Shown: in pieces, positions 1,706-2,472 of the stretch
Layout of the letters: each line of letters opens with the position of its first letter
How positions within the stretch are numbered: the stretch's first letter is position 1
Source of the DNA: Naegleria gruberi
Lineage: Eukaryota
DNA length: 2,775 nt
NCBI GenBank assembly: GCA_000004985.1
Contig: GG739245.1
Strand: one strand, 5' to 3'
Program-made: the position numbers and the translations under genes
Notes under the pieces: model-generated
Told to the model about the DNA's origin: nothing
Database searches by the model: none
Seen by the model: only the letters and a program-made list of their open reading frames with translations

Positions 1706-1730
1706 ATAGACTTCCGGAAAAAGTTTTGCT

Positions 1731-1744
1731 AAAAGTCGACTTTT
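1731..1744. repeat. 14-bp perfect palindrome AAAAGTCGACTTTT (GTCGAC core)
   Basis: Self-complementary. It lies in the left arm, between the TTCCGGAA and GGCGCC motifs. Confidence 0.9.
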
Positions 1745-1769
1745 TTAAGGTACTTTCACGCTAATTTGC

Positions 1770-1802
1770 AAAAAGGCGCCTAAAAGGTGCCTAAAAGGTG
1801 CC
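1770..1802 (+). repeat. 3 x 11-bp tandem repeat AAAAAGGCGCC / TAAAAGGTGCC / TAAAAGGTGCC, followed by TTTTTT
   Basis: Read directly from the sequence. It is the left-arm counterpart of the single-copy palindrome at 2410-2427. Confidence 0.85.
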
Positions 1803-2409
1803 TTTTTTACCTAAAAACTACTTGAAACACATCCAAAGTTTGTTCAAGAAAATCTTGAGCAACTTTCAAACTGTTTTCAAACAATTCCTCAAGAATGATT
1901 AATTACTTCTCAACCAAATTCTCAAAACGTTCAAGTATTTGCTAAAAAAACCCCAAGGGCCCTCAAACTTCTGAACTCACTCTCTTTCTTAACTATATCC
2001 TTTTCCAAAAAATCCACCAATTCCTTAAGAGACCCAAGGTTTTTGAATGTCACCATCTCGGGTCACTGTAGTTTTGATGGATTTTTTTTCATCAATCACG
2101 AAATCTTTCGAAAGCTCTGGTCTTTTGGCATGATGATTGTTTTCTTTTTGATAAGGTTCAGGTTTTTTCTCTTTCTGGGTGGAGTGATGTTCAAATCAAA
2201 TCTCTTCCTCTTCCTCAACATCTTCCGTTCCATCAACAATAGAATCAGCAAGATTAGGGAACCTTTCAACTTCAGCAAATGCAGTAAAGAAAAGGTTGAC
2301 ATCAGGAAAAAGAAAGCTTCAATAAATGTGCAGGAAAGGTTTAAACATTTCTTGAATTATGCTCAAACAAATTTCAAAAATTGCTCAAACATTTTTCAAA
2401 CCACTTTTT

Positions 2410-2427
2410 TAAAAAGGCGCCTTTTTA
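2410..2427. repeat. 18-bp perfect palindrome TAAAAAGGCGCCTTTTTA (GGCGCC core, no loop)
   Basis: The sequence is its own reverse complement. It lies in the right arm of the inverted-repeat structure. Confidence 0.9.
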
Positions 2428-2472
2428 TTTCTTTTTGACTTTTCCGGAAGTCTAATGAATCTTAATAACTTA

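Follow-up and report, generated by a model that had tools for sequence, protein, structure and literature searches.

A perfect 15-nt inverted repeat delimits a 748-bp unit that may be a MITE-like transposon but is not a foldback element

Is the segment that spans positions 1707–2454 a mobile element and, if so, of what architecture? The segment lies in the window, i.e. the whole stretch of DNA analyzed here (2775 nt, 31.7% GC), and an earlier note had described it as a foldback or MITE-like element, probably non-autonomous, whose two arms would be inverted copies carrying the same ordered set of motifs. The answer depends on how far the resemblance between the two ends extends, on the nature of the short motifs found there, on whether the interior codes for a protein and on what else could account for such an arrangement.

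Limits of the unit and its terminal repeat

The unit and its termini are as follows.

1707–2454, unstranded: the whole unit, 748 bp, GC 34.6%, with limits set by a perfect 15-nt inverted repeat
1707–1721, plus strand: the left terminal inverted repeat, TAGACTTCCGGAAAA, which contains the 8-nt self-palindrome TTCCGGAA
2440–2454, minus strand: the right terminal inverted repeat, TTTTCCGGAAGTCTA in plus-strand letters, the exact reverse complement of TAGACTTCCGGAAAA

The two terminal sequences match at 15 of 15 positions, in agreement with the inverted termini claimed in the earlier note. This terminal repeat is the longest perfect inverted repeat in the window, and it is G+C-rich amid DNA of 32% GC. 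When the window was shuffled with its dinucleotides preserved, a perfect inverted repeat of at least 15 nt appeared in 42 of 1000 shuffles (4.2–4.5%), in each case made of A and T only, and none of 1000 shuffles contained such a repeat with at least six G or C. Across the whole window, the only perfect inverted pairs of at least 12 nt are the terminal pair and a 12-nt pair, AAAAAGGCGCCT (1770/2415), which is nested inside the terminal pair at the same two ends and whose occurrence by chance within two 110-nt inner arms has P ~0.02. The combination of a G+C-rich 15-nt repeat with a nested 12-nt pair indicates that the two ends are related beyond chance. The composite pattern GACTTCCGGAAAA-N-AAAAG-N-AAAGGCGCC, which was picked after the sequence had been seen, is present once per end, on opposite strands, and in none of 200 shuffles. 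Note that eight of the 15 terminal bases are accounted for by the self-palindrome TTCCGGAA.

The unit also departs in composition from the DNA on its left: its GC content compares with 28.1% in the left flank (1091–1706), and its TA dinucleotides have an observed/expected ratio of 0.36, versus 0.67 in that flank. The earlier note had pointed out a TA at both termini. These dinucleotides are present, but they belong to the inverted repeat, of which they form the outermost pair, and so short a sequence carries no weight in AT-rich DNA. More generally, the possible target duplications are TA, as part of the repeat, or AAT (1705–1707 and 2454–2456), both being too short to weigh, and inspection of the flank letters revealed no flanking target duplication of 4–9 bp. 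A long direct repeat of the flanks, as would be left by a target or segmental duplication, was rejected because its score (13, versus 11 ± 1.8 in the null) is not above chance.

Relationship between the two ends

Beyond the 15- and 12-nt blocks, the two ends are not the inverted copies that they had been taken for. MAFFT opens a 57-column gap when aligning them, the spacers are unalignable and identity outside the blocks is at background level. Whatever the orientation, direct or inverted, the inner arms share a longest substring of 12 nt, and the block-free arm interiors score 16 when compared in the inverted and 17 in the direct orientation, with a null mean of 12.2 and a 95th percentile of 16. 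Since the direct score is about the same as the inverted one, the CTCAAAC/TTGAGCAA-rich segments of both ends reflect shared low complexity and not an inverted copy. As for GGCGCC and GTCGAC, they are self-complementary and hence uninformative on orientation. The claim that both arms carry one ordered set of motifs stands insofar as the motifs are present, but it was overstated, two of the three shared motifs being self-complementary or of low complexity.

Extended inverted arms were consequently rejected, the complementarity detected by MAFFT and by local alignments being limited to 15 + 12 nt. Folding of the whole unit as single-stranded DNA yields −85.7 kcal/mol, versus −73.0 ± 6.7 kcal/mol in shuffles (z −1.89), with pairing restricted to the termini and the GGCGCC blocks; folded separately, the two arms reach z-scores of −0.9 and −1.2. 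Drosophila FB elements belong to the foldback transposons with long inverted repeats; their long arms, built of tandem subrepeats, occupy the greater part of the element, which therefore snaps back. The unit shares with them inverted termini and a short tandem array (11 nt × 3) in one end, but differs in that only 27 nt are complementary and in the z-score of its fold (−1.9). A Foldback (FB-like) element was thus rejected, the long arms being absent and the whole-unit fold prediction marginal, and the description of 1707–2454 as a foldback is not supported.

Subterminal motifs and tandem

The two ends contain several short palindromic or periodic features, one of which has a further copy outside the unit.

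1731–1744, unstranded: subterminal perfect palindrome AAAAGTCGACTTTT, centered 31 nt from the left end
1770–1806, unstranded: AAAAAGGCGCCT, then AAAAGGTGCCT × 2 and a T-run, forming an 11-nt tandem × 3, with a 12-nt inverted match to 2415–2426
2363–2401, plus strand: imperfect 11-nt periodic tract, TCAAACATTTT × 3.5, just inside the right palindrome
2410–2427, unstranded: subterminal perfect 18-nt palindrome TAAAAAGGCGCCTTTTTA, centered 36 nt from the right end
2636–2649, unstranded: AAAAGACGCGTCTT, a copy of the AAAAGNCGNCTTTT type with the core palindrome AAGACGCGTCTT, outside the unit

The palindromes AAAAGTCGACTTTT and TAAAAAGGCGCCTTTTTA lie where the earlier note had placed them, and the triplicated 11-bp GGCGCC unit that it described in the left arm is confirmed as a tandem of 3.0 copies at 1771–1803 (TRF, period 11, 95% matches), which reads AAAAGGCGCCT, AAAAGGTGCCT, AAAAGGTGCCT. 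The A-tracts of this tandem are spaced by about one helical turn. The subterminal motifs have the common form AAAAG-NCGN-CTTTT, and this AAAAGNCGNCTTTT-type motif, with at most two mismatches, has four matches in the window (starting at 1731, 1793, 2412 and 2636), versus 0.5 expected. The fourth of these is located beyond the unit, to which the motif set is therefore not restricted. In terms of position, the counterpart of the left GTCGAC version (31 nt from the end) is the right GGCGCC version (36 nt), so that the left GGCGCC tandem comes in addition. Units 2 and 3 of this tandem (1782–1803) have GGTGCC in place of GGCGCC, i.e. a C-to-T change at a CpG; with two events only, the fit of these units to deamination of a methylated CpG is suggestive at most.

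Coding capacity of the interior

The interior is characterized by a compositional feature.

1815–2400, unstranded: TA-depleted interior, with a TA observed/expected ratio of 0.27, versus 0.49 in the neighboring ORF taken as a true one (see below) and 0.67 in the left flank

On the plus strand, the frame 1899–2435 is stop-free for 179 codons, which has P ~0.005 relative to dinucleotide-preserving shuffles. The first 77 codons of this frame are devoid of ATG, and its translation is of low complexity, rich in phenylalanine and leucine. Codon-usage scores for the six interior frames range from −0.29 to +0.03 bits/codon, while the neighboring ORF scores +0.20 to +0.28 (cross-validated). None of the frames matched Pfam, NCBIfam or the sequences of the PDB, no homologue of the interior conceptual protein was found, an exact-product look-up for the 131-aa interior ORF returned no record and the window contains nothing similar to a transposase. 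With TGA taken as a sense codon, three overlapping frames open together inside the unit, a multi-frame opening that is due to TA depletion and not to recoding; alternative genetic codes with TGA, TAG or TAA as sense were rejected, as the neighboring 362-codon ORF contains no TGA. The low-complexity translation, the lack of ORF-like codon usage and the lack of a homologue agree with the view, already expressed in the earlier note, that the interior is probably non-coding and the element non-autonomous. The open frame 1899–2435 itself is not explained by dinucleotide composition and could be what is left of a former ORF.

Searches for related DNA

No second copy of the unit was found in IMG/VR, in metagenome contigs from JGI/ENA, in GTDB genomes or in phage and plasmid records, collections in which the window itself is absent. 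Because the window is absent from all the collections scanned, these negatives are uninformative on mobility. Likewise, the composite end pattern, present at both ends of the unit in the window, has no match in the metagenome and GTDB contigs, from both of which the window is absent. A relaxed version of the pattern retrieved 74 metagenome loci, which we ascribe to chance, as they show no extended similarity and have a GC content of at least 37%. The terminal 15-mer had 17 chance matches in IMG/VR, devoid of extended similarity, BLAST against phage and plasmid sequences came back empty, and the motif strings had no occurrence in the full-text literature. The failure to detect any relative of the window in very large public collections, even for its long intact ORF, suggests an unsampled lineage with undescribed repeat families.

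Comparison with known classes of elements

MITEs such as the Stowaway-like ones derive from Tc1/mariner elements and duplicate a TA. The unit shares with Stowaway-like MITEs a size below 800 bp, AT-richness, short perfect terminal repeats, the lack of coding capacity and an intergenic location near genes, and the TA at both of its ends could be the duplicated target, although it is inseparable from the outermost pair of the repeat. Unlike typical MITEs, the unit, with its 748 bp, is at the upper size limit. To our knowledge, its termini (GACTTCC...) do not resemble those of Tc1, mariner or pogo, nor those of any other superfamily.

The organization of the ends is also reminiscent of Ac/Ds (hAT), En/Spm (CACTA) and the P element, in which short terminal repeats are accompanied by subterminal repeats that bind the transposase. 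As in these elements, a short terminal repeat is followed by repeated short motifs within about 100 nt of each end and the number of motifs is unequal between the ends, but here the subterminal motifs are perfect palindromes with CpG cores. An assignment to the hAT or P type was rejected for lack of an 8-bp target duplication, the flanks AGCACAAA (1699–1706) and ATGAATCT (2455–2462) agreeing at 2 of 8 positions; nor is there a 3-bp duplication with CACTA termini. A Helitron, which would display a 5' TC, a 3' CTRR, no terminal inverted repeat and insertion between A and T, was discarded since both strands begin with TAGAC and inverted termini are present. The unit is not a solo LTR of the probable neighboring retroelement relic described below either: its termini read TAGAC...GTCTA and not TG...CA. 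The 20 nt between the stop of the reverse transcriptase (RT)-like frame and the unit (2455–2475) are not purine-rich, in contrast to the polypurine tract expected next to an LTR.

Finally, mitochondrial GC clusters, double-hairpin elements and the bacterial REP, RPE and Correia repeats are dispersed, multi-copy units of 30–150 nt. Like GC clusters and REP-type repeats, the unit displays short G+C-cored palindromes that are locally over-represented in AT-rich DNA, but its palindrome cores differ among themselves (TCGA, GCGC, CGCG). The window gave no sign of an organelle or bacterial origin, be it a tRNA, an Rfam match or a bacterial homologue.

A MITE-like element and its rivals

The features to be accounted for are a perfect terminal inverted repeat of 13–15 nt and a palindrome located 31–36 nt inside each end, in a unit without recognizable coding capacity. 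We propose, with a probability of about 0.45, that 1707–2454 is one DNA transposon, non-autonomous and bounded by terminal inverted repeats, either MITE-like or internally deleted, whose mobility is putative. A non-autonomous element of this type is the most economical explanation for a unit that is this small, codes for nothing recognizable and departs from its left flank in composition; as in MITEs, terminal inverted repeats are found at both ends, the size is small and there is no transposase gene. Moreover, the presence of perfect 15- and 12-nt blocks amid unalignable spacers suggests conserved protein-binding sites rather than an inverted duplication decaying uniformly. The MITE-like, non-autonomous character put forward in the earlier note thus agrees with the short terminal repeat, the subterminal motifs and the absence of coding capacity, whereas the foldback architecture has to be abandoned.

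If the unit is such an element, its terminal repeat and subterminal palindromes would be recognized by a dimeric transposase encoded elsewhere, and bending at the helically phased A-tracts (11 nt) might assist the assembly of a paired-end complex. Movement would proceed by cut and paste, with duplication either of TA, in which case the repeat would be GACTTCCGGAAAA (13 nt), or of AAT, in which case it would be AGACTTCCGGAAAA (14 nt). The triplication at the left end might have arisen by replication slippage, GGTGCC being a putative product of CpG-to-TpG decay of GGCGCC. Several observations speak against the MITE-like reading: a single copy is known, although this is uninformative, as the source genome is absent from the collections scanned; the candidate target duplications are very short and the termini unlike those of familiar superfamilies; the palindrome type is also present outside the unit, at 2636–2649; palindromes are in excess throughout the window, so that they may characterize the locus and not an element; and more than half of the terminal repeat (8 of 15 bases) is self-palindromic. 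If the MITE-like reading is correct, it amounts to routine repeat annotation, useful for masking and for dating insertions, and unsurprising; mildly more interesting is the local excess, of about 6-fold, of CpG-centered perfect palindromes.

This excess is the core of the main rival explanation, which we regard as unlikely but ahead of the other alternatives, namely that 1707–2454 is a non-mobile intergenic or regulatory region with a cluster of short CpG-centered palindromes. The palindromes would then be bound by dimeric proteins, or would make the DNA bent or prone to form cruciforms, and the terminal repeat would consist of two opposed GAC-TTCCGGAA sites. CpG-centered palindromes of at least 8 nt number seven in the window, versus 1.2 expected (0 of 500 shuffles reaching this number), six of the seven being inside 1707–2454, and perfect palindromes of at least 12 nt number six, versus 1.25 expected (P = 0.002), with those at 613, 1620, 1667 and 2638 lying outside the unit. 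The regulatory explanation also accommodates the 4 versus 0.5 count of the AAAAGNCGNCTTTT motif, with one copy outside, the A- and T-tracts with 11-nt periodicity at both ends and the location of the region upstream of the start, at 1087, of the minus-strand ORF. However, it accounts neither for the perfect mirroring of the 5 + 2 bases beside the TTCCGGAA core, nor for the nesting of the two significant inverted pairs in the manner of transposon ends, nor for the difference in composition between the enclosed 640 nt and the left flank. The presence in the interior of a small or recently dead gene, maybe a remnant ORF of a larger element, with the palindromic modules as control or termination signals, appears improbable. 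The 179-codon stop-free frame and its P value argue for it, as do a TA ratio (0.27) that is below even that of the neighboring ORF (0.49) and the codon-aligned minus frame 2408–2028, which scores best of the six and, with TGA as sense, has 127 codons without a stop; yet codon usage in all six frames falls short of the coding value of the neighboring ORF, the 77 initial codons lack an ATG and the translation is of low complexity, no Pfam family, homologue or exact product is on record, and recoding is unsupported given that the neighboring 362-codon ORF is free of TGA.

We give still less credit to a decayed local inverted duplication, or a chance juxtaposition, devoid of function and mobility. 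It would fit with the single copy known (the source genome being absent from the collections scanned), with arms that are otherwise unalignable and with a fold only marginally better than that of shuffles, but a neutral decay that erased the spacers should not have spared perfect blocks of 15 and 12 nt, and chance has to contend with a G+C-rich terminal repeat seen in 0 of 1000 shuffles and a second block whose P is ~0.02 on its own. More far-fetched, one dimeric protein could recognize both the termini (GAC-TTCCGGAA) and the AAAAG-NCGN-CTTTT palindromes, the unit being either a TIR transposon of a new superfamily or a chromosomal module (origin, insulator or boundary) made of phased A-tracts and CpG palindromes.

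Genomic neighborhood

On the minus strand, a frame comprising 363 stop-free codons extends from 1090 past the left edge of the window; with an ATG at 1087–1085, it defines an ORF of at least 362 aa (1087–2). Judging from its codon usage (+0.20 to +0.28 bits/codon after cross-validation, the five alternative frames scoring −0.2 to −0.4), this is a true coding frame. Its product matches neither Pfam nor NCBIfam; searches of 5.8 billion clustered proteins and of 1.84 billion representatives (exhaustive HMMER search) retrieved no homologue, and IMG/VR and GTDB genomes contained no relative. An AlphaFold prediction made without an alignment consists mostly of beta strands and is unusable (pLDDT 36). 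The remaining 1.7 kb of the window contain no convincing gene, tRNA or Rfam match, and bacterial promoter and terminator patterns are not above expectation in the window.

Two further features of the window bear on its transposon content. Between the 362-aa ORF and the unit, region 1305–1595 contains an imperfect 26-nt inverted repeat (22/26), with arms at 1315–1340 and 1562–1587 that enclose 221 nt. The region is predicted to form a long nested hairpin (−38.8 versus −22.9 ± 3.6 kcal/mol, z −4.46), none of 200 shuffles being as good. This region, for which no clear target duplication was seen, is a far better foldback/MITE candidate than 1707–2454. On the other side of the unit, the minus-strand frame 2754–2671, part of an open stretch from 2775 to 2473, encodes NPVLNPINVVPKKGSAEYRFILDLRKIN. 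In a single BLASTP comparison with an HIV-1 RT sequence, this peptide aligns with residues 54–81 (fingers motif), with 10 of 28 residues identical, 18 of 28 positives and E = 8e-5. In tblastn of the same RT sequence against the window, 2754–2671 is the top match (E = 8e-4), the next one having E = 0.56. Downstream, where a DxxDAYF motif would fall, there is a weak, frame-shifted match, 'LEDASF' (E 29). The RT-like frame found nothing in Pfam, in PDB sequences or in a large protein database; from its resemblance to the fingers motif, minus-strand 2754–2671 is a probable, though not proven, relic of a decayed retroelement RT. With the 1305–1595 hairpin unit and this RT-like relic, the neighborhood looks transposon-rich, which favors the MITE-like reading of 1707–2454.

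CpG is depleted across the window (observed/expected 0.60), and the low coding density, the ORFan, the RT relic and this depletion together suggest transposon-bearing eukaryotic DNA. The surviving CpGs are disproportionately located at palindrome centers. CpG-containing palindromes are also found outside the unit, namely AAGACGCGTCTT (within 2636–2649), which contains ACGCGT, and CAACGTTG (2727–2734). To the left of the unit, CACAAATATTTGTG (1620–1633) and CACAAATTTGTG (1667–1678) are perfect palindromes with a common half-site, an (ACACAA)3 microsatellite lies at 1654–1672 and a perfect 10-nt tandem, TTTAGCACAA × 2, occupies positions 1686–1705, ending at the left terminus.
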